From Trichodelitschia bisporula (Eukaryota): a stretch of 64,000 nt of DNA. The notes under the pieces are model-generated. The model was not told the DNA's origin. It saw nothing but the letters and a program-made list of their open reading frames with translations, and made no database searches. The position numbers and the translations under genes were made by a program. The stretch spans positions 426,963-490,962 of the forward strand of contig ML996701.1 in the NCBI GenBank assembly GCA_010356995.1, written 5' to 3'. Of this stretch, positions 32,473-54,775 are shown piece after piece (the first letter of the stretch is position 1; the number at the start of each line of letters is the position of its first letter).

Positions 32473-34159
32473 GACAGGCAAATCCGCTGCCTTACTCGCT
32501 CAATTAAGAATTAAACAAAGTTTGAAAAAGAGCGTCAAGAATTGCCCTCACTCCAGGTTAGGGCGTGGGCGCCCCCAACTTATTACATCCCCTCCCTCTC
32601 GGCACTCGACTCCGACGCTCCGCGCGACGATGCTACTCCAAGAGTGGCGACCGGATGCGCGTCGAGCCCTGCAAGCTTCTGCGCCTCATCGGGAGCCGGC
32701 AGGTGCACGGACGCGGGTGGAGCGGACCCGCCGTAGCGAGGCGGGGGACTTGCGAATGGGCGTGCGGAACGGAGACGGGGGTGGGGCGGGGTGGAGCTTG
32801 TTTTCGCTTGATCGGTTGTTGGGGTGGAAGGGTGGGCATCGCGGAGACCCCTCGATTGCTGTGCTTCGCTAGTCCATGCCGTTAATTCAACCTATTCAAG
32901 GGGGAAAAGATAGGAATGGGATTCCGTAGTCCGGGTGTGCGGCATCGGGTTCTCTTATTCCTGCTGCAAAACTCGGAATGGAACGTAGAGGGCAGGCGGA
33001 ACTCGGCGCTTGTTTACAAACATTGACGATAGCCGACGTCAACGACGTCAATGCCAGATTGCTTGTCACAGACAACCGGGTTCGAACTCCCACTGCAATC
33101 TGTGTCGTCCAGGTAGCGCAACGGACTCGAAATGAGTGCAGGGTACGATGCCAACCCGGTCCCCAGGCCAAGGCCCTGGACGCTGGAGAACATTTCCAAC
33201 GCAACCATGGCATTCTTGGCTTCCATATTGGTGCCTGAGGCTGGAACTTGGCGGCTCAGTTCTTTCCGGCTTCCGGTGACCTTCGAGAAGAGCTGGCGGG
33301 CAGCCGGATCAGCGTGTGGGCGTTCCGTGTGGCGTGTAGGGGGGCGTGGATTGTTTTGGGAGGTCGAGATGCCGATGGAAGCGTACTATATGTGTTCCGG
33401 TAAGGCTGAAGACGGCGTGGACGGATACCTGCCTCGTAATGCGTGTGACCGTCACACAACACCACGCCGACTTGTAGGGAGGTGTACTTCGCTAGTCTGT
33501 CTTCATCTGAACCACAGTTGCTAATTCGGATTAGTTTCCTCAAATGAACAGTCATCGCGTACTTACTCCAAGCTGTCGTCCAACGCACCACGGTTCTTAA
33601 GAGCTCTGGAGTTGGTTGGAGTTGCAGGGGAATGACAATGAATCGGCATAGCTGCAGTCTGCGTATTCATATCAGTAGGACCTCAGTCTTGTTTTGCGGG
33701 AATGACATGAGCTAGTCATGGTATCAAGGCCGAGTAATGAAAGCAGAAGCGCAAGGCACCAGACAGCTAAAGAACCTGATCCGAAGAACGGCGATTGAAA
33801 GCAGAACGAAAGACGAAGATCAAGAGAAGTTGAGCGGCGTGCCCACTCAGATCTAGACAGTGCTTGCCACGTATGCTTCTTCCGCAGTCATCCAAGGTCC
33901 CTTCCAGGCTTGCCCTCTGCGACTTCCCAAAGGTAAGTATGCTCCTTCCTGGGATATCAATGTTCCTTCCTTAGCTCACATCAGGAGCGACGTCACATCT
34001 TACGATCAGAGGCGCAATGGACATCACCAAATAATCAACTTGTTCGATTGATCTACTATCTTCCGAGTCCACCCTGATCTCATCTCAAGGCCTATCATGC
34101 TCCGCATGATAAGTCACCCATCGAGGCCATTGCCATGCCTCGTCACTCCCTCGTTGTAA

Positions 34160-34312
34160 TCACGTCCTAGAGATGCAATCGCGGTATTGTTGGTACGCCG
34201 TGCGCCTAATCACCTCCATATGGCAGCTGTTGCTGTCAGGGGCGGAGCAATAGGCGAGCATACGGGAGATAGAATGCCCACAGCCGTAGGTTATCTTCTC
34301 AACGCGGCACAT
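34160..34312 (-). CDS. Cys/His micro-protein, array copy A (50 aa)
   Basis: MCRVEKITYGCGHSISRMLAYCSAPDSNSCHMEVIRRTAYQQYRDCISRT; CACCATG start context; terminal CxxC changed to YRDC. Confidence 0.7.
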   Translation of the reverse strand: MCRVEKITYGCGHSISRMLAYCSAPDSNSCHMEVIRRTAYQQYRDCISRT

Positions 34313-34689
34313 GGTGGTGCGTGAGCTTGTGTTTATCCATATGCGTGTTGTATGTGTGGATGAGTGTGTTTCGGTCATGGTTGTGGTCTTCGTTTTGGGA
34401 CGGCCTGAAAGGCTTTCATACATCGCGATGGGTGACGCTCCAGCGGCGTGACGAAACCTGGTGGTGAACATCTACACTTAAAGGACTAACGTCATCGGTG
34501 TAGGTTTAGCTCTAGAAGCTTATGAGGGATTGCAGAGAACGGGTCGTAGGAACCGCATGCAAGCTGAATGGCGTCTGTTCTAGCTGTCGGAGAGTGGCTT
34601 GACACCATGCTTTCACCGTTATAACGGACATCATCAAATGAGCCACTCAATCGATTTATCTCCTATCTACCGAGTCTACGCCGGCCTCG

Positions 34690-34833
34690 TCACTCACCGC
34701 AGCTGGGGCATTTCCGGGACACCCCAATCTTGCTCACGGCCTAGCAGCGCTTGCCCATGAGTGCGGAGCAACGGACAAGAACCCGCGTAATAGAGTGACC
34801 TCAGCTGTATATTATCTTCTCGATGCGACACAA
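34690..34833 (-). pseudogene. Cys/His micro-protein, array copy B, pseudogene
   Basis: (TTG)CRIEKIIYS*GHSITRVLVRCSALMGKRC*AVSKIGVSRKCPSCGE*: start ATG>TTG, TGA at 34801-34803 where other copies have Cys, TAG at 34741-34743. Confidence 0.8.
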
Positions 34834-35063
34834 GGTGCTTGTGTGTGTTCGTGTGTGTATGTTTGTTGCGGCTAAGGTCTCCATTTCGGCCCGCTAGAGG
34901 GATTTTTATAGATCTTGGTATGTGATGCTGAGAGGAGTGACTAAGTCTTGTGGTGATCACCGATACTTGAAAGCTAACGTCACTGGCATAGGTTGGAATC
35001 CAGATGATTTAATCGACTTGTTTCCTATCTACCGAGTCTACATCGGCACCATCGCGAGGCCTT

Positions 35064-35258
35064 TCACGCTCCATATAGCAGGTCACCCGTCGGTGGCTTA
35101 ACATCTTTAGCAGCGCACTTGCAACACTTCTGGCCCCTCCCGGTCTCCCTCTGCCTGATTATAACATGGCAGCTCTTGCCGTCGGGGGCGGGGCAACGCT
35201 CTAGGATACGCGTGTAGAAGTGCCCGCAGGGGGCGATTGTCTCCTCAACGCAGCACAT
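35064..35258 (-). CDS. Cys/His micro-protein, array copy C (64 aa)
   Basis: MCCVEETIAPCGHFYTRILERCPAPDGKSCHVIIRQRETGRGQKCCKCAAKDVKPPTGDLLYGA; TATAAAA ~105 nt upstream. Confidence 0.78.
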   Translation of the reverse strand: MCCVEETIAPCGHFYTRILERCPAPDGKSCHVIIRQRETGRGQKCCKCAAKDVKPPTGDLLYGA

Positions 35259-35856
35259 GGTGATGTGTAAGCTTCTGTATGTTTGTGTTTGTGTGGGTAT
35301 GGTGTATGGGGATGTGTATCTTGTGGACCGTTGCGGCCTTCGTTCGGGGCGGTCATAGGGGCTTTTATACACCGCATTAGTAACAGGCTATGTGTGACGC
35401 TTCAAGAGAGTGATCAAGTGTTGTGGTTAGCATAGACTCTTGAAGGGAAACCCTCACCGGCATAGATTGGATTCTAGATGGTTATAAAGAGTTTCAGAGC
35501 ATCGACAAGGCTACGCTGCGCGTATTCTGATCCAGCAGGGATTCTAGTTCTAGCCTTGCATGACATGGGCTACCCACGGACTCAAGGCCGGACAACGAAG
35601 GCAGTCTCAAGTACTTAGCGGGTGAAGACTGGATTCGCATAGGACTTGGAATTGCAACGTCGGAAACGGTCAGCGGCGTATGGCTGAATAGCTTATCCTT
35701 GTCGTCGGAGAGTAGCCTCACATCATTATTAGAGTCAAAATGGGCGTCATCAAGTGAAAAATTCTTTCAATTCATTTTTTATCTACTTGATTCCCGGCGG
35801 ACTAGTATGCTCCGCCGCAACTCGCCCATCGGTCTTCGTCATGCCTCTCCTCCGGC

Positions 35857-36021
35857 TCAATGGAATATCTTATAAGTAATAGCATAACACTTGGGGCATT
35901 TGTCCGGTAGGCTGCGCCAGGTCTCGGTAGGGTGGCAGTTGCCAGGGGGGCCATGGCAAGCAACGACGAGGTGCTTCTCGGTATGTCCGCAGGAGAAGAT
36001 CATCTTCTCAAAGTGGCACAT
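35857..36021 (-). CDS. Cys/His micro-protein, array copy D (54 aa; below ORF-track cutoff)
   Basis: Hand translation MCHFEKMIFSCGHTEKHLVVACHGPPGNCHPTETWRSLPDKCPKCYAITYKIFH; TATAAAA at 36151-36157. Confidence 0.78.
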   Translation of the reverse strand: MCHFEKMIFSCGHTEKHLVVACHGPPGNCHPTETWRSLPDKCPKCYAITYKIFH

Positions 36022-36689
36022 GATGGTGCACGGATGGCTGTCTACAAATTTGGTGATGTTTGGGTGAGGTTCTAAACCCGTGTGGTGTGTGTGGGAATGC
36101 TTGTGTCGCGTGGATGGGTATGGTCGTCACTCCGTGGCGGAGAGGACGGCTTTTATACGCCAGGATGGGTGATGCTCTGGACGAGTGACGAGTCTTGCAG
36201 TGAACATGGATGCTTGAAGGGCGGATATCACAGGTATACAGTAAGCTGACTTTGAATGGTTATGATGAGTTGCGGCACTGGAAATGGTAGCAGCGTATGG
36301 TGATGTAGACATGGAAGGAGCATTGTTATGTTAGGAAAGAGCGTACTTATCTAAGCGAAAGGGACATGACGTAGTGTGCTCATGGCTAAGGGAAGGAGCA
36401 TTAAAGGGCATCGTATGCATATTCCTAAGAGTCTCTGACTCTCTTCCTCACGTCGACTTTACTTAAATCTTCAGTTTTACAGTTGCCTCGCACGTAATGG
36501 GCCCTTGCTCTCATCATGCGGCACAATAGCTTACATCTAGTTATAGTAGAGCAGCTTCACATCGTCATCAGAGTCACAATAGGCGTCATAAAGTGAACCA
36601 TTCATTCAATTCATATCCTATCTATCCCATTCGTACCGGCCTACCACGCTCCAGAGGAGTGACGATGTCTTCTGGTAAACGCCGATACT

Positions 36690-36884
36690 TCAAGCACGCC
36701 ATCCCTCGGTGGTCTTCAGAAAGGCCACTCTCCGCAGCATATTGCCGCAAGTGTCGCAGGCGGACTGCTCTTTGCGGTGGAGGATGTTGAAATTGCAACC
36801 TGGACTCTTCGGATTGGGGCAAGAAACGAAGTGGCGAATGTCGGTATGCCTGCAGCAGAAGGTCACTTTCTCGTAGGTACACAT
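36690..36884 (-). CDS. Cys/His micro-protein, array copy E (64 aa)
   Basis: MCTYEKVTFCCRHTDIRHFVSCPNPKSPGCNFNILHRKEQSACDTCGNMLRRVAFLKTTEGWRA; TATAAAA at 36998-37004. Confidence 0.78.
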   Translation of the reverse strand: MCTYEKVTFCCRHTDIRHFVSCPNPKSPGCNFNILHRKEQSACDTCGNMLRRVAFLKTTEGWRA

Positions 36885-37209
36885 TTGTGATGTGTTGTTG
36901 GAGTCTGTGTTAGTTTGTCAGTATGTCTGGGTACGTGTGTTATGTGCGTGTGTGCTGGAGATGGTTGTAGTCTTCGTTTTGGAGCGGCCAAAAGGGGTTT
37001 TATACACCGCGATGTGATGTGACGCTCGCGATGGATGACGGAACCTAGCGGTGAAAAGCGACATTTGAAGGACAGCCATCACCGGCATACGATGAACAAT
37101 CCCGGCTGGTTTCAATCCAGCAGTTCAGCAGACATATACGAGAATCCAAAGACGGCGCGACTCTCCGCCGCAAGTCATCTATCGGAACCATCGCGATACC
37201 CTACCCTTG

Positions 37210-37368
37210 TCAGGACTCTATCATTCTGCAATCGTCGCAGTTGTACCTGTCCTTGCGGTTGTGGTTGGCGAAGACATGGCACTTCCTGCCCTGAGGTTTG
37301 TCGCACGGGGAGATGATGTTGATGACGACGTGCCCGCAGAAGTGGACGACCTTCTCAAGGATACACAT
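37210..37368 (-). CDS. Cys/His micro-protein, array copy F (52 aa)
   Basis: MCILEKVVHFCGHVVINIISPCDKPQGRKCHVFANHNRKDRYNCDDCRMIES; TATAAA at 37515-37520. Confidence 0.78.
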   Translation of the reverse strand: MCILEKVVHFCGHVVINIISPCDKPQGRKCHVFANHNRKDRYNCDDCRMIES

Positions 37369-37782
37369 TGTGGTGTCTGGGTGAAGTTGAACCGGTGGAG
37401 GTGTGAATGGATCTGAGTAGAAATGGGTGTGGTGGGTGAGTGTGCATGTTGGATGTGGGGATGAGGTTGTGGGTTGGATGGTTGATGTAAACATTTCGGG
37501 TCGCGCAGAAGGGGTTTATACTCCACGACATGTGACGCTGGGGACCCGTGAGCACAGGCCCCTTGGGAACTTGAAGGGAAAACATGACCGGGATGGGTTT
37601 GACAGTTGCCGCTGTCTAATGCAGTATAAGAAGAGACAACAGCGAGCGAATCCCTAGATGGCGAGAGAGAGCGGTCGAAGTCCAGTATCCCTACCGCGTC
37701 ACCCTCCACATCCGCTCTGCTCAACGCCCTCCCCCAAAAGCGCTGGACAGTCAACATCCCAAGCCTCTTTTCCTCTGCTCCA

Positions 37783-39546
37783 TTACATCCTAAACACACC
37801 AAACCTCGTCTCCTCCCCGCCTGTATCCGCCGCCACCCTCAACCCCAACGCAAGCACCCTCCTCGAATCCGTCGGCAGTATGACCCCATCATCCCACAAC
37901 CTCGCCGACCCATAAAGCACCTCACTCTCTCTCTCAATCCTCTCCTTAAGTCCTTCCCCCCCCTTCCCCACACTCGCCATCACCGCCTCCAACTGCTCAG
38001 CCCCCATAACACTCGTCCTTGCATTCGGCCACGTCCACAAAAACCGCGGCGAATAGGCTCTTCCACACATACCGTAGTTCCCAGCACCGGCACTCGCCCC
38101 AATCACAAGCGTCAGCTTCGGCACCGCCGCACACGCCACCGCTGTAACAAGCTGCGCGCCGTGCTTCGCGATACCAGCATTCTCCGCCGCGCGACCCACC
38201 ATGAAGCCAGCGATGTTTTGCAGGAATAGGAGGGGTATTTTGCGCTGCGCGGCGAGTTGGATGAAGTGTGCGGCTTTGAGGGCGGAGGGGGAGAGGATGG
38301 GCCCGTTGGAAGCGAGGATTGCGACGGGGAGGTTGTGGATGCGCGCGAAGCCTGCCCGCGTCAGTTGGGTCTATGAAAAAAGGGGGGACGTACCTGTGAC
38401 AATCGTCTGTCCGAAGTCCGGCTTGAATTCAGCGAATTCGCTCCCGTCGACGAGACGCGCGATGACCTCGTGCGCGGGGATCTGCCGCCGCAAGTTCGTG
38501 CCTACGATACCGGCTAGCTCGGCGGGGTCGTAGAGCGGTTCTTTCCAGCTCGCGGGTGCGGCTTGGTCGGTTGGGATTGAGACGGCAGCGTTCCGGGGCC
38601 AGTTGTAGTTGGAGATGGAGCGGCGGGCTAGGACGATGGCGTGTGCTTCGTCGACCGCCATGTAGTCACCCACACCCGACACGCTCGTGTGCATTGCCGC
38701 GCCACCCAGGTCCTCAGCGTCTACGACTTCGCCCGTTGCGGCTTTGACCAGCGGTGGCCCGGCGAGGAAGATATGCCCCGTCTTCTCGACGATGATGTTC
38801 TCGTCGCTCATAGCGGGGACGTACGCACCGCCCGCGGTACACGGCCCCATGACGATAGACAGCTGCGGAATGCGGGCTGCGCTCATCGTGGCCTGGTTGT
38901 AGAAGATGCGGCCGAAGTTATTAACGTCCGGGAAGACATCAGCCTGGTGCGCGAGATTTGCGCCGCCGCTGTCCACGAGGTAAATGCACGGCAGGCGATT
39001 CTGCCTCGCGATCTCCTGCGCCCGCAGATGCTTTTTCACTGTGATGGGGTAGTATGTCCCGCCCTTAACCGTGCTATCGTTCGCAACAATCATGCTCGTG
39101 ACACCGCTGACCGTGCCTATCCCCGTAATGATCCCGCCACCGGGGACGTCCTCGCCGGGATACAGCTCGTGGCCGGCCAGAGGGGAGAGCTCAAGAAACG
39201 GCGTGCCGGGATCTATCAACGCTGTGATGCGGCTGCACGATTAGCTTCCTCCATGGTGGCAGGACGCAACCACTTACTCCCGCGGCAGTATCTTCCCCCG
39301 CGCACGATGCTTCTCCCGCGCCTTCTCCGAACCACCCTGTGCAGCCGCACGCCGCAGCTCCGTGACGCGCGCGCAGGCTGCCCGCATTTGTGCATCATTG
39401 TGCTTGAATTCTGCGCTCGAGGTGTCGATCTTCGAGCGGAGGATGGAGACTTGTGAAGCGTGGTGCGAGTGCGTGTGTGAGGCTATGTGCCGGCGGGGGG
39501 GTAAGCGGCGGTTAAGGATCCGGATTGAGAGTCGGGGAGGAGACAT
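37783..39546 (-). CDS. mccB: 3-methylcrotonyl-CoA carboxylase beta (carboxyltransferase) subunit; 3 exons
   Basis: Arg-rich mitochondrial-type leader; [67 protein letters not shown] end; introns 39233-39277 and 38352-38393. Confidence 0.93.
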
Positions 39547-40196
39547 TGTGGGTGGTGGTTGTCGTGATGGTCGGTTGTTGAGGTTAGTGATGTTTGCTGG
39601 TTCGCGTCTTATGCGGGGAGGAATGGCCGATGATAGCCGTGGGACCTGGGGAAGGCCCTGGAGACAGGGCTTCTCCACATTGTGGCTGGTGCTTACAGGA
39701 GGGGGCGTCAACGTCATCGTTGCTGCATAAAAAAGATATCACGGTTTATCTGGCGCTCGTAGCATTAAGGCGCTTCATCGAGCAATTGTGTATGGATTAC
39801 TGGCTAGTCGAGTGAGATATCAAGAAGGGGGAGTCGCGATGTGTTGACAGAAGACAGACACCGGGCGGTACTGAGTTGACCGGCTTGGACTGCTGATGTC
39901 AGAAGGTTAATTGTAAGGTTACTGGAGGAATAATCCTTTGGAGCTTGCTGTGCCCTTCGTTGCCACGCTTCAGGTCCATTGATGGCATACCGTATAGCAA
40001 AGGTCTTGGATAGAATAATACTGAAGTAATCCGTAGCACTCAGAGATTTGAATGAGGTGGGGCACAACGACTTGATACGTCCCGCTCAATTACCGAAGCT
40101 ACCCGCCCCAAGGTCGCACCCGGGAATGTGGCGCTCGCTGACCACGACCGTTGTTTATGAAGTCCACAACCCCACAAAATGAAGTAGAACAGCTCA

Positions 40197-41582
40197 ATGG
40201 CGACCTCCACCCTCGTCCCCCGTCTCCTCGCGCGCTCCATCCGCCAAACATGCCGACAGACCTATCTCCCCCGCACCGCCACCCGCGCCGCCTCCTCCAT
40301 CCACCCCAAAGGCTTCACCCCACCCACCAACGATGAGCTCTTCGAGCTACGAGAGCAAGTCTCAGACTTCACACGTAACGCCGCCCTCCCCCCCAATCCA
40401 CCCTCTAACCACGCCGCAGGCCGCGAAATCCCCCCCTCCGTCGCCCACGCCACAGACCTGAACAACGACTTCCCCACCCCAATGTGGGGGAAGCTCGGGT
40501 CCGCGGGCTTCCTCGGCGTGACCGCGGACGAGGAATACGGCGGGCTGGGCATGGGCTACCAAGCGCACTGCGTGGTGATGGAGGAGCTGAGTCGTGCGTC
40601 CGGCAGCATCGGGCTTAGTTACGCTGCGCACTCGCAGCTGTGCGTCAATCAGCTCATGCTCCACGGCACACCGGAGCAGAAAGCCGCGTTTCTGCCTGAG
40701 CTTATTAGTGGGGAGTTGGTGGGTGCGCTGGCTATGACCGAGGCGCAGGCCGGCTCGGACGTGCTCTCCATGCGCACCAAGGCGACGAAGGTGAAAGGGG
40801 GGTGGGAGCTCAGCGGGGCGAAGCTGTGGATTACGAACGGGCCCGACGCGCATCTCGTCATCGTGTACGCGAAAACGGACCCCGGGGCGCGGAAAATCAC
40901 CGCCTTTATCGTGGACACCAGCGCGCCGGGCTTCAGCGTGACCCGCAAACTCGACAAACTCGGCATGCGCGGCTCAAACACCGGCGAGCTGGCCTTCGAC
41001 TCCGTCTTCGTGCCCGACGACCGCGTCCTCGGTGAGATAAACGGCGGGACCAAGGTCCTGATGAAGGGCCTCGATCTCGAGCGCCTGGTCCTCTCCGCCG
41101 GACCCCTGGGCCTCATGCGCGGCGCCTTCGACGTCGCACTCCCGTACGTGCACTCGCGGACGCAGTTCGGCGACCCCATCGGGCATTTTCAGCTCGTGCA
41201 GGGCAAGCTCGCAGACATGTACACGGCTTACCAGCGCTCCGCGGCGCTGACCTACGCGCTGGCCGCGGCGGTGGACACCGGATCCGCGGCGCACTTTGCG
41301 CGGCCTGAGAGCCTATTCCCTCCGCCCGCAGACGTTACGCCCGCGCATGACGCGCGGGTGCGGAGTCAGGACTGTGCGGCGGCTATATTGGGGGCAGCGG
41401 AGAGTGCGACGCGCGTGGCGATGGATGCTGTTCAATTATTGGGTGGAATGGGGTATTCGAGTGAGATGGCGGTGGGGCGGATTATGAGGGATGCGAAGCT
41501 GTATGAGATTGGGGCGGGGACGTCGGAGGTGAGGAGGGTTATTATTGGGAGGGCTTTGAATCGGTTGTATGTTGATGTTTGA
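40197..41582 (+). CDS. ivdA: Isovaleryl-CoA dehydrogenase, mitochondrial; 2 exons
   Basis: SRASGSIGLSYAAHSQLCVNQ, KLWITNGPDA, KLDKLGMRGSNTGEL, GLDLERLVLSAGPLG, RDAKLYEIGAGTSEVRR; in-frame intron 40375-40419; divergent from mccB. Confidence 0.93.
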   Translation: MATSTLVPRLLARSIRQTCRQTYLPRTATRAASSIHPKGFTPPTNDELFELREQVSDFTRNAALPPNPPSNHAAGREIPPSVAHATDLNNDFPTPMWGKLGSAGFLGVTADEEYGGLGMGYQAHCVVMEELSRASGSIGLSYAAHSQLCVNQLMLHGTPEQKAAFLPELISGELVGALAMTEAQAGSDVLSMRTKATKVKGGWELSGAKLWITNGPDAHLVIVYAKTDPGARKITAFIVDTSAPGFSVTRKLDKLGMRGSNTGELAFDSVFVPDDRVLGEINGGTKVLMKGLDLERLVLSAGPLGLMRGAFDVALPYVHSRTQFGDPIGHFQLVQGKLADMYTAYQRSAALTYALAAAVDTGSAAHFARPESLFPPPADVTPAHDARVRSQDCAAAILGAAESATRVAMDAVQLLGGMGYSSEMAVGRIMRDAKLYEIGAGTSEVRRVIIGRALNRLYVDV

Positions 41583-51376: not shown

Positions 51377-52063
51377 GTTATTTGGTGGATGGATTATGGC
51401 TGGCAGAGGAAAGATGGATGTTTCTTGTGAGGTCTGCTGCGCCGCATCAAGGAACGTCGTCTTCATAACCTCACCCAGCACGTGATCTAAAATTCCGCCT
51501 TATGACCACACCTTACGTCACCCAAGTCCATAGGAATGCAACTGCTCTAAAAGTCCTGACTATGTATTTGCTAGCCCACTGCCTCATAACGCTGTGTAAA
51601 ACCGTGAAGTCACTCCGCTACCCAAGCAAACTTTAAGTTCATGATCCCATCAACGACAAGCAAGGCTGAGCGCCTCGCACGCTGACTGGTGGAACCCGCC
51701 CGCGCCCCACCATCACCAAGCTAAACGACAATGCGCAACACACATTCAGTCCTCCAAACCCACCGTAGGGCTGGAATCTCCCCTATCTTCTTCCAAAGTA
51801 CCTATGTTCTTTCAACCCAATCTAGCACATAAGCGATATACAAACTCTGCCCCCTCGCTCCGCTAATTGCCCCCGTCTCGCACTGATTGCCCCACCTCAG
51901 GCCGCGCAACACCGCAAACCGCAAGCCTCGAACGCGATACCGCAAAGTGCGCGATAGCAGCCCAAACACCATGCCATCTCGAATACCTGCCCACTCTCCC
52001 AACCTCACATAATACCCCGCCCCCACCGTCCATGTCGCCCCCCGCCTGCGCCAGCAAACAAAC

Positions 52064-54775
52064 ATGCACTTCCCCCTCCAAGCCCTAACCCTGGGCACCT
52101 GGGCCCTGACCCACGCCTTCCTCGCCGCCGCACAAGGCACACCAGAGGACTACGCGCGCGCCGCCGCATATCCTGGCCGCATCACCGCCGCCGCCGCAAG
52201 CGCCGACATCGCCATAACACCACACTGGCTCCACTCCAACGACAGCTTCTGGTATAGACACAACACGGCCAGCTCCTCCACTTTCTTCCTCGTCAATGCA
52301 AAAAACGCAACGAAAAAACCGGCGTTCGATCATGCCGCCCTGGCCGCGGCGCTGAGTGCGCAGACGGGGGGGGAGGTGTCTGCGAGCCAGCTGCCGTTTA
52401 GCTGGATTGAGACGGAGCGGGATGGGGCGTATGTGCGTTTCCGTGCGGGGGAAAAGGCGTGGGAGTGGAAGGGGGGGCGGTTGAGCACGTATGATGGCCC
52501 GCTGCACGAAACGTCCCTCCGCCCTATTCCATTCGAATTTCCGAGCAGGGCTGGGGGCGCGGCGACAGCGATTACGTTCATCAATCGCCGGAAGGAGGAG
52601 TTGAGGCTTTTCTGGATCGACACCGAGGGCGCGGCGGTGGCGTACGGGACGCTGGAGGTGGGGCGTCCTAGGAGGGTTACTACGTATGTGGGGCATGTGT
52701 GGCGGGTCGCTGGCTCGGATGGGAAAGCGGTTGCGGTGTTTGTTGCGGGCGCGGAGGAGGGGAGTGCCGTTGTTGAAGATGGGACGAGTGCTAAGGGGGT
52801 GGGGTGGCCTAAGGGGGGTGCGTGGCCCAAGGGCGCGGGGGGGAAGGCGAGCGGGGCGGCGTTTGTGCGGGATTACAACGTGTGGACGCGGGTCGATGGG
52901 AAGGATGTGCGCATCTCGAGCAACGGGTCCAAGGACGCGCCGTTCAACCCGCTGGTGCACGTATCGCCGGACCAGCGCTTCGCGGTTGCGTACCAGTATG
53001 CGCCGGAGCAGGAGCACAAGGTTTATCTCGTGGAGAGCAGTCCGCGGGAGCAGGTCCAGCCAAGGTTGAAGCCGATTCAGTATCTTAAGCCGGGGGATAG
53101 GGTGCAGGTTGATCGGCCGAGACTGTTTGATCTTGTGGGGAAGAGGGAGGTGAGCACTGAGGATGGGTTGTTTGCGGGGCCGTGGAGTGTGGAGGATGTA
53201 GGCTGGAGTGCGGATGGGGGGGAGTATAGGTTTGTGTTTAATCAGCGTGGACACCAGGTCCTGCGCGTACTGGGGATGAATCGTCAGGGGCGGGTGCGCA
53301 TGCTGATCGAGGAGACGAGTCCGGCGTTCATCGACTACAGCAGCAAGACATACATCAAGCTCCTCGCGGCTACGGACGAAGCCATCTGGGCCAGCGAGCG
53401 GGATGGCTGGAATCATCTCTACCTGTTCGATCTCAAGACCGGTACTCTCAAGAACCGCATCACGAAGGGCGAGTGGGTGGTGCGCTCCGTCGAGCGCGTC
53501 GACGAGGCCAAGCGCACAATCACGTTCAAGGGGTTTGGGATGGTGAAGGGGCAGGATCCGTACTACGCCCATCTCGTGCGGGTCAATTTCGATGGCTCGG
53601 GCCTAACGCTGCTGACAGAGGGCGATGGGACGCATACCTGGAAGCTCTCGCCCGATGGCCGGTACCTGGTTGACACGTTCAGCCGCGTGGATTTACCAGC
53701 ACAAGTACAGCTCCTCGACGCGGGGACGGGGAAGAAAATCGTCGAGCTCGAGAAAGGCAGTTTCGATGCGTTGAAAGCAAAAGGCTGGAACGAGGCCGAG
53801 CGCTTCGAAGCCCCCGGGCGCGACGGCAAGACACCTATTTACGGGATCATCATCAAACCATCTACCTTCGACCCCGCAAAGAAATACCCGATCATCGAGC
53901 AAGTCTACGCCGGCCCGCAGGACTTTTTCACGCCCAAGGCTTTCAGCACGCTTACGCGGCAGCACCAGATTGCGGAGCTCGGGTTCGTGGTTGTGCAGAT
54001 TGATGGCATGGGGACGAATTGGCGGCATAAGGCGTTTCATGATGTTGCTTATAAGAATCTGAAGGATGGGGGGTTTCCGGACAAGATTGCGTGGATGAAA
54101 AAGGCGGCGGAGACGAGGCCATGGATGGATCTGGGTCGTGTGGGCGTTTATGGGGGTTCCGCCGGGGGGCAGAATGCTATGGCGGCGGTGCTTTGGCATG
54201 GGGAGTTTTATAAGGCTGCGGCGGCGGATAGTGGGTGCCATGATAATCGCATGGATAAGATAAGTACCCTCTGCCACTCTTTTCGTATCTGTCTAACGGC
54301 CAGGCACGTCTGGTGGAACGAAGCATGGATGGGCTACCCCGTGGACAAGGCATACGAGGATTCATCCAACGTCGTGCACGCGGGCAAGCTGACCGGAGCA
54401 CTGATGCTCATGGTGGGCGAGATGGATACGAATGTCGACCCGGCGTCGACGCTGCAGGTGGTGAATGCGCTCAACAAGGCGCAGAAGGACTACGAGCTTC
54501 TGTTTGTTCCCGGCGGCGAGCATGGGGCGGGGAGTGCGCCTTATGGGATGCGAAGGCAGTATGACTTTTTCGTGAAGCATTTGCTGGGCGTTCAGCCGCC
54601 GCCGCGGAATCAGGTGGGGCAAAAGGTGTTCATGGCTGAGGATGCGGCGGCGGTGAATGGGACGGATAGTGGGATGGACGCTGGGCCGGAGGTGTCGTTC
54701 TTTGATGCTCCGGTGAGGATGATAAAGGAAGACCCGTACCAAGAGTATGTTAGCATGGAGTACGAGGAAGCTTAA
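52064..54775 (+). CDS. Secreted S9B (DPP IV-like) serine peptidase with inserted VHL-beta-like domain
   Basis: Signal peptide; beta-propeller region (SERDGWNHLY, DPYYAH); VYAGPQ, GVYGGSAGG (Ser), DTNVDP (Asp), GEHG (His); candidate non-canonical intron 54260-54307. Confidence 0.88.
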   Translation: MHFPLQALTLGTWALTHAFLAAAQGTPEDYARAAAYPGRITAAAASADIAITPHWLHSNDSFWYRHNTASSSTFFLVNAKNATKKPAFDHAALAAALSAQTGGEVSASQLPFSWIETERDGAYVRFRAGEKAWEWKGGRLSTYDGPLHETSLRPIPFEFPSRAGGAATAITFINRRKEELRLFWIDTEGAAVAYGTLEVGRPRRVTTYVGHVWRVAGSDGKAVAVFVAGAEEGSAVVEDGTSAKGVGWPKGGAWPKGAGGKASGAAFVRDYNVWTRVDGKDVRISSNGSKDAPFNPLVHVSPDQRFAVAYQYAPEQEHKVYLVESSPREQVQPRLKPIQYLKPGDRVQVDRPRLFDLVGKREVSTEDGLFAGPWSVEDVGWSADGGEYRFVFNQRGHQVLRVLGMNRQGRVRMLIEETSPAFIDYSSKTYIKLLAATDEAIWASERDGWNHLYLFDLKTGTLKNRITKGEWVVRSVERVDEAKRTITFKGFGMVKGQDPYYAHLVRVNFDGSGLTLLTEGDGTHTWKLSPDGRYLVDTFSRVDLPAQVQLLDAGTGKKIVELEKGSFDALKAKGWNEAERFEAPGRDGKTPIYGIIIKPSTFDPAKKYPIIEQVYAGPQDFFTPKAFSTLTRQHQIAELGFVVVQIDGMGTNWRHKAFHDVAYKNLKDGGFPDKIAWMKKAAETRPWMDLGRVGVYGGSAGGQNAMAAVLWHGEFYKAAAADSGCHDNRMDKISTLCHSFRICLTARHVWWNEAWMGYPVDKAYEDSSNVVHAGKLTGALMLMVGEMDTNVDPASTLQVVNALNKAQKDYELLFVPGGEHGAGSAPYGMRRQYDFFVKHLLGVQPPPRNQVGQKVFMAEDAAAVNGTDSGMDAGPEVSFFDAPVRMIKEDPYQEYVSMEYEEA

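Follow-up and report, generated by a model that had tools for sequence, protein, structure and literature searches.

A tandem array of small Cys/His-module units in Trichodelitschia bisporula, read as a locally expanded and partly decaying family of probable structural-zinc modules

What is encoded by six short, cysteine-rich reading frames that lie head to tail on the minus strand in Trichodelitschia bisporula, and is this array still maintained as a gene family? The window analysed here is a stretch of 64,000 nucleotides (contig ML996701.1 of assembly GCA_010356995.1, positions 426,963 to 490,962), is eukaryotic and fungal in character, and supplies the coordinates used throughout, which count from its first letter. 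An earlier note, made from the letters alone, had proposed an array of intronless genes for intracellular Cys/His micro-proteins with a fixed ligand scaffold and hypervariable spacers. The reading favoured here, to which a probability of about 0.6 is given, is that the array represents a gene family that expanded locally and is now partly in decay, its products being small intracellular structural-zinc modules that plausibly act as binding adaptors.

Each of the six proposed starts, 34312, 34833, 35258, 36021, 36884 and 37368 for copies A to F in that order, heads a homologous unit on the minus strand. The six homologous units are thus real, but the description of them as six genes holds only in part, as three units are clean (C, D and E), two are impaired (A and F) and one is a pseudogene (B). 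A profile hidden Markov model (HMM) of the five open copies finds these copies among the six-frame pieces of the window (n = 2125) at E values of 7e-27 to 2e-24 and the B fragment at 7e-4, with the next best piece at 0.54; no further copy is present among these pieces of the 64-kb window. Leave-one-out HMMs recover A at an E value of 9.7e-12, C at 1.3e-9, D at 2.2e-8, E at 1.7e-9 and F at 2.9e-10, the best unrelated piece of the same set having an E value of at least 0.17. Specificity was gauged on 80 metagenome loci unrelated to the array (646,913 bases), none of which carries the module, the best E values being 0.019 and 0.037; these loci are contigs that match the C-terminal exon of the neighbouring mccB-like gene with 56-63% identity, and none is a close relative of the locus. 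The closest resemblance among the copies is that between A, B and C, at 0.63-0.64 identity, and F is the most distant.

The proposed contrast between fixed ligands and hypervariable spacers is borne out by the alignment, whose seven ligand columns have an amino-acid identity of 0.905, against 0.214 for the other columns. The Cys and His codons are better kept than the rest, with identities over the six copies of 1.00, 0.95 and 0.65 at codon positions 1, 2 and 3, and they vary synonymously, TGC alternating with TGT and CAT with CAC. Codons that are conserved in amino acid yet synonymously variable are the signature of selection on the amino acid. Non-ligand codons have identities of 0.43, 0.49 and 0.48 at the three positions and exhibit no third-position excess of change, and mean nucleotide identity is 0.60 in the promoter cassette, 0.55 in the leader and 0.53 in the coding core, indicating that the coding sequence outside the ligands is no better kept than the promoter. 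Within the array, purifying selection is limited to the ligand positions plus Glu5, Pro25 and Arg37, suggesting that the product is likely to be a binding module with paralogue-specific surfaces. Pairwise ratios of nonsynonymous to synonymous substitution (dN/dS) range from 0.23 to 1.30 over 15 pairs, and because dS is saturated (0.6-3.4) these ratios are uninformative for positive selection and do not separate relaxed constraint from diversification. Repeat-induced point mutation was considered as a cause of the divergence and set aside, as a TpA/ApT ratio of 0.71, a composite index of 1.22 (window background 0.65 +/- 0.06 and 1.21 +/- 0.07, respectively) and transition/transversion ratios of 0.6-1.5 give no signature of it, in copies that are too old for a firm answer.

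The family is not confined to this genome. A HMMER search of 1.84 billion representative proteins returned seven matches at E <= 1e-3, three of which are true relatives (P0005-P0007, E values 1.9e-4 to 5.6e-4) that share the module from the first residue; the other four (P0001-P0004) are long repetitive proteins and were dropped after reading. Profile searches with the relatives added gave more members, all of them unnamed and without Pfam domains. The relatives occur in two forms, a short form of 71-87 residues (P0005, P0006 and P0012) and a long form of 180-283 residues (P0007-P0011 and P0013-P0020). In the long form the module makes up the N-terminus, and behind it lies a conserved, unrelated C-terminal region that the array copies lack. 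By hhalign, the array matches the short relatives with a probability of 96.7% (E 3.1e-10) and the N-terminus of the long relatives with one of 94.5% (E 7.7e-8), at an amino-acid identity between array and relatives of 20-39%. On this sequence evidence, the array arose by local expansion within a wider, unnamed family of ascomycete proteins with an MC-x8-CGH start, which has the same N-terminal module, the same seven ligands in register and the same Met-Cys start.

In alignments of 13 and 18 sequences the module stays in register at Cys2, Cys11, His/Cys13, Cys22, Cys30 and C43-x2-C46. C11, C22, C30 and C46 are invariant among the 18 sequences, and C2 and C43 are present in at least 90% (Cys2 in 17 of 18); within the array, C43 is missing from copy A, and the frame of copy B is disrupted. 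The family module can be written as M-C-x8-C-x-[H/C]-x8-10-C-x6-11-C-x12-16-C-x2-C, and the array spacing is C-x8-C-x-H-x8-C-x6-7-C-x12-14-C-x2-C. Position 13 is His except in P0016 and P0017, where it is Cys, a swap expected of a metal ligand and one that supports this role. The earlier count of six Cys plus one or two His is therefore narrowed to six Cys and a single His/Cys position family-wide, giving seven ligand positions; a second His, following Cys30, is found in copies A, C, D and F only and is not kept across the wider family.

No described family accounts for the module, as had been surmised: there is no Pfam match, relatives are all without names, and a full-text literature search, taken at the level of its listings, produced nothing relevant. 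The Pfam search gave no credible match, with copy A matching no family and four unrelated families each matching one of the five members (best E 0.0024). A sequence search of the PDB returned only a chance row (E 0.13), and a word-index protein search with the five copies returned no match. In a collection of 15 billion proteins, no entry is identical to any of the five open-copy peptides. Features of the ESM Atlas point to unnamed Ascomycota clusters (57-77 members, scores 0.89-0.91), a lead only, given their low recognition value, and the Atlas search among named clusters gave no usable match.

AlphaFold2 predicts the same topology for copy E (13-row alignment, predicted local distance difference test score (pLDDT) 79.6) and copy D (18-row alignment, pLDDT 84.9, with strands at about 93): a three-stranded antiparallel sheet (residues 2-8/9, 14-20 and 31/32-38) followed by a helix that starts at the CxxC. 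In these models the turn of the first hairpin would carry C-x-H and the helix would begin with CxxC, an arrangement like that of a treble clef, and Cys2, Cys22 and Cys30 would cluster near the other end of the sheet, the assignment to sites being drawn from the topology. The module is similar in size to treble-clef and zinc-ribbon mini-domains, and its predicted layout, with one ligand pair in the turn of a beta-hairpin and a CxxC where a helix begins, would be like theirs, but it differs from them in having one CxxC knuckle and seven ligands, including the residue directly after the initiator Met. Foldseek and VIA searches with the D and E models gave nothing significant (best Foldseek E 0.11; best Z 3.8, to BofC). 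Small zinc domains alone recur as fold neighbours, namely the C-terminal Zn(Cys)4 domains of PerR and Fur and small ribosomal zinc-ribbon proteins, at insignificant Z scores of 2.0-2.9; the likeness to treble clefs and zinc ribbons is one of compatible predicted topology, with best matches that are weak (Z 2.0-3.8, Foldseek E >= 0.11) and no sequence relationship. The peptides contain 10-12% Cys, have isoelectric points of 8.3-9.0 and, in agreement with the earlier note, lack a signal peptide by a heuristic measure, as hydrophobic runs among residues 1-30 reach 3-5 residues at most.

Taken at their most probable, these properties describe proteins of 50-64 residues, presumably intracellular, each consisting of one small predicted metal-binding module. 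The seven conserved positions would hold one or two structural Zn ions, and the rest of the surface would have drifted or diversified to give paralogue-specific surfaces. Zinc binding, fold and intracellular location are inferred in this scheme; that the zinc-stabilised module binds a protein or nucleic-acid partner, and so serves as a binding adaptor, is a guess.

The condition of the copies fits the birth-and-death dynamics that had been suggested, with C, D and E intact, B dead, A and F impaired, and a seventh unit surviving as a promoter relic. Copies C, D and E alone look fully intact; all three retain every ligand, have no ATG in the leader ahead of the start, and keep both an unaltered TATA box and an adenine at -3. 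The open reading frame (ORF) of copy C occupies 35064..35258 (64 codons; minus strand, like every unit); that of copy D occupies 35857..36021 (54 codons); and that of copy E occupies 36690..36884 (64 codons, 7/7 ligand positions), with CRH replacing CGH and an Asn following Cys30. Copy B (34690..34833) fails as a gene, as it has a TTG start and two in-frame stops, at codon 11, where TGA takes the place of the Cys11 codon, and at codon 31. Copy A (34160..34312, 50 codons) does not have the complete CxxC of the proposed consensus, a Tyr (TAC) standing at its first Cys, and its candidate leader contains two upstream ATGs, of which the one at -66 is in frame and the one at -28 is not. Copy F (37210..37368) has 52 codons in genomic DNA, and its leader contains a 30-codon out-of-frame upstream ORF (uORF) that starts 79 nt upstream and overlaps the ATG. 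As had been reported, A and F sit inside longer ATG-initiated ORFs (103 and 94 aa). The array would thus have undergone both birth and death, A having lost a ligand and gained upstream ATGs and F having gained a uORF and a knuckle-deleting intron.

This intron contradicts the description of the units as intronless. It occupies 37201..37246 on the minus strand, is 46 nt long with GT..AG ends and a CTGAC branch motif that contains the genomic stop codon, and is spliced out in RNA contigs. Two sequencing runs, X3 and X4, were taken as RNA because introns of the neighbouring genes (42-46 nt) are spliced in them and unspliced in X1, the DNA run; the RNA evidence consists of assembled contigs, X3 and X4 coming from one sample of one study. 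The F joint (37199->37246) is present in a 2728-nt contig of X3 and a 351-nt contig of X4 and in 0 contigs of X1. Splicing deletes the CxxC knuckle and the genomic stop codon, exchanging the last 11 codons for six others, so that the remaining ORF has 47 codons and encodes four Cys. When the other copies were scanned for introns of this kind, B-E gave none and copy A gave three candidates, all within the coding core and none at the position of the F intron. The F intron apparently arose inside the coding region of F alone and may have been gained recently, by intronisation.

A promoter cassette and a 3' block recur with the copies, showing that duplication took in entire transcription units, which then diverged, as the earlier note had proposed. 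The cassette is about 150 nt long, ends in a TATA box 77-152 nt ahead of each start and has six full nhmmer matches in the 64-kb window (E 1e-30 to 1e-40); outside the array, no nhmmer match with E < 1 was found in these 64 kb. All cassettes lie on the minus strand: that of F at 37476..37617 (E 1.9e-30; TATA-like box 152 nt upstream of the ATG), E at 36960..37111 (5.7e-39), D at 36112..36258 (1.1e-34), C at 35325..35484 (1.8e-35), B at 34868..35011 (7.6e-34), and A at 34376..34522, where the TATA box is changed to TATGAA. The mccB RNA contig reaches 37595 with its 3' end and so extends into the F cassette. Upstream of the TATA box, the short blocks CCTTCAAG, GTCAC and AGCRTCA are kept in 6/6 cassettes (for example 34376-34522) and are candidate transcription-factor sites.

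The 3' block, of about 95 nt and likewise on the minus strand, has four full nhmmer matches and one partial match. The full blocks follow E (36550..36643, a 3' untranslated and transcript-end region inside which the X3 RNA contig ends, at 36600), D (35711..35804, E 8.2e-23), B (34593..34688, E 1.6e-25) and A (33986..34081, E 1.1e-24, at the end of the array); the partial block follows C (35007..35047, E 9.1e-5, repeat family D8) and runs straight into the B promoter cassette. The sequence CCTATCTACCGAGTCTAC, previously cited as shared between units, is part of this block and belongs to repeat family D8. The block was also considered as a structured RNA and rejected as such, with a consensus energy of -0.99 kcal/mol and no conserved RNA structure. 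A search against Rfam gave no match at E <= 1.

Next to the E stop codon, and abutting it, 49 nt of a seventh promoter cassette survive as a relic (36646..36694, minus strand, nhmmer E 2.4e-7, repeat families D1 and D4), indicating that the array formerly comprised at least seven units, one of which was lost. A 45-nt stretch beyond the array (33702-33746, family D14) is 76% identical to 35560-35604 in the C-D spacer, which hints that spacer material, and perhaps more units, formerly extended past copy A. In the D-E spacer, the contigs of all three runs, the DNA run included, break at 36300-36450, with loose ends at 36300, 36331 and 36450 and a joint 36342->36428. DNA depth there climbs to 1325, against about 410-430 on the flanks, and a 15.4-kb contig of high depth in DNA and RNA runs has 41 and 23 nt in common with the region, which is perhaps a short dispersed repeat or a foreign, possibly organellar, insertion. 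Tandem Repeats Finder reported three trivial short repeats only, and an inverted-repeat search reported two weak pairs and no transposon-like termini.

Transcription of the copies is supported to the extent that RNA contigs lie over E and F, and read-through from mccB could contribute to this cover. In X3, the 2728-nt contig spans 36600-39232 with three minus-strand introns removed and links mccB, F and E, and RNA contig cover at 36600-37199 crosses copy E without any joint. In X4, the separate 351-nt contig spans 37078-37474, corresponds to unit F with its intron removed and has a depth of 7.9, compared with 441 for the mccB contig. The orientation of the F splice places the F RNA in sense on the minus strand, an orientation shown for F alone. 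Bins over A-D (33956-36259) have a depth of 0-0.96 in X3 and 0 in X4, which, as contigs cannot show absence, is not evidence either way.

Several observations weigh against the structural-zinc reading. Translation and metal binding are predictions only; RNA was obtained from one sample as assembled contigs only, and the array is co-oriented below a strongly expressed mccB with an X3 contig joining mccB, F and E, such that read-through could explain the cover. Three of the six copies are damaged, most of each peptide is without detectable constraint (no third-position excess outside the ligands), and dN/dS over the core is high (0.23-1.30) with saturated dS. Seven ligand positions are too few for two canonical sites of four ligands each, and the models have no significant match to any solved fold (Foldseek E 0.11, VIA Z 3.8). 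Furthermore, 0/5 peptides are called as protein in the 15-billion-protein collection, and the Atlas recognition score of 2118 is below the level of most real families. Alternatively, the array might be mostly dead weight, in which one or a few family members were amplified by unequal crossing-over and the copies now decay without maintained function, the transcripts arising from mccB read-through and residual promoters. The pseudogene B, the missing ligand and altered TATA box of A, the uORF and spliced-out knuckle of F, the relic of the seventh unit, the lack of coding-type constraint at non-ligand sites and the single X3 contig are all in its favour. It is nevertheless judged unlikely: the copies are only about 55-64% identical in DNA and saturated in dS, yet 40/42 ligand codons (seven positions in six copies) still encode a ligand and vary synonymously, a pattern that requires prolonged selection on the protein after duplication. 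In addition, C, D and E retain clean leaders, an adenine at -3 and TATA boxes, and the F transcript of X4 is a separate contig that starts about 30-40 nt downstream of the F TATA box and has 1/50 of the depth of the mccB contig.

A conserved scaffold with hypervariable loops, in a tandem array with birth-and-death evolution, could also be a recognition or defence repertoire, in which a zinc scaffold shows diversifying surfaces to non-self (mycoviruses, transposons or competitors) or serves allorecognition. Non-ligand codon identity (0.43-0.49) is below that of the promoter cassette (0.60) and dN/dS exceeds 1 in 2/15 pairs, as such a repertoire would have it, but saturated dS cannot tell positive selection from relaxed constraint, the comparison is limited to six copies at one locus, the repertoire would be a small one with every second copy damaged, and no link to a known defence gene was found in the window; this explanation is held to be improbable. 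Defensin-like peptides and fungal effectors also have a fixed Cys scaffold, hypervariable sequence between the Cys and tandem birth-and-death, but secreted cysteine-rich peptides of this kind are a poor match, as the array peptides have no signal-like run (by heuristic) and the His/Cys ligand position indicates metal sites. Export of disulfide-rich, toxin- or pheromone-like peptides without a classical leader would agree with small size and an even number (six) of conserved Cys and is scarcely credible, given that no signal-like segment is present, that the conserved His exchanges with Cys in relatives, which suggests metal ligation over disulfides, and that the module occurs as a domain of larger leaderless proteins.

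Metal buffering or detoxification by metallothionein-like Zn/Cu stores, with dosage set by copy number, would explain six Cys and a His in about 50 residues encoded by tandemly amplified genes. CUP1-type metallothionein genes are tandemly amplified, and fungal metallothioneins such as CUP1 and the Neurospora Cu-MT are small, Cys-containing and leaderless, with about 25-30% Cys; metallothioneins carry their Cys in CxC/CxxC clusters and have little regular secondary structure. This likeness was rejected and the buffering role is considered rather improbable, as the array peptides contain only 10-12% Cys, a regular beta-beta-beta-alpha fold is predicted with confidence, the copies have diverged and were not homogenised for dosage, no metallothionein Pfam family matches even at E <= 10, and the module is also the N-terminal domain of proteins of 180-283 aa with a conserved unrelated C-terminal region. 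Two further zinc-binding families were compared and rejected. The Zn2Cys6 domain (Gal4-type, PF00172) is fungal and has the pattern CX2CX6CX5-12CX2CX6-8C and two short helices; the array module is also fungal and its six Cys could share two Zn ions, but its spacing differs, a beta-sheet is predicted and Pfam does not return PF00172 even at E <= 10. The RING finger provides the best Pfam row (RING_ZNF598), yet for 1/5 members only at E 0.0024, and it has an eight-ligand cross-brace in place of seven ligand positions.

A more specific variant would make the Met-Cys start functional: Met excision would expose an N-terminal Cys that is both a metal ligand and a conditional signal for degradation or modification, forming a metal- or redox-gated switch. 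The stability of the micro-protein would then report zinc, oxidant or oxygen status, the variable surfaces would let paralogues titrate different partners, and the standalone array copies might regulate the long-form proteins carrying the same module. The sole support for the switch is that Cys2 is conserved in 17/18 sequences and is predicted to lie where strand 1 begins, and this variant is regarded as a very long shot. A family of structural-zinc modules, locally expanded and partly decaying, is retained as the preferred account of the array.

Neighbouring frames in the window encode a BEACH-domain protein, a major facilitator superfamily transporter, an mccB-like carboxyl transferase and an isovaleryl-CoA-dehydrogenase-like acyl-CoA dehydrogenase. 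The array adjoins the mccB-like gene directly on its downstream side, both lying on the minus strand. The mccB-like gene (methylcrotonyl-CoA carboxylase beta-like carboxyl transferase; 37783..39738, Pfam Carboxyl_trans E 1.4e-79 and 2.8e-44) is spliced and lies under RNA contigs, its upper bound being approximate and set by the end of the last open frame there, with no mapped start. The acyl-CoA dehydrogenase (40188-41582, plus strand) was identified as an open frame with Pfam. The two genes are divergent (37783-41582) and form a leucine-catabolism pair, with deep spliced RNA contigs over both in X3 and X4. A small spliced plus-strand transcript (about 33100-33932, with RNA contigs over 33535-33932) converges on the end of the array and has two alternative GT..AG joints, 33398->33534 and 33483->33535, indicating alternative 5' splice sites. 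Further away, a dipeptidyl-peptidase-IV/S9-type open frame (52013-54775, plus strand) also scores, in its N-terminal part (residues 184-235), for a VHL beta domain, with an E value of 3.2e-7, an unusual pairing.

Leaderless proteins of fewer than 70 residues are routinely missed in fungal annotation, and the locus defines a compact, apparently undescribed Cys6-His module together with an HMM to find it elsewhere. Within this one locus several routes of gene decay or change can be followed, namely start loss with stops, ligand loss, uORF gain and the birth of a knuckle-removing intron. If zinc binding and a partner are not true of the module, the array is an ordinary lineage-specific gene family; if they are, it would represent a fungal-specific class of mini zinc fingers.

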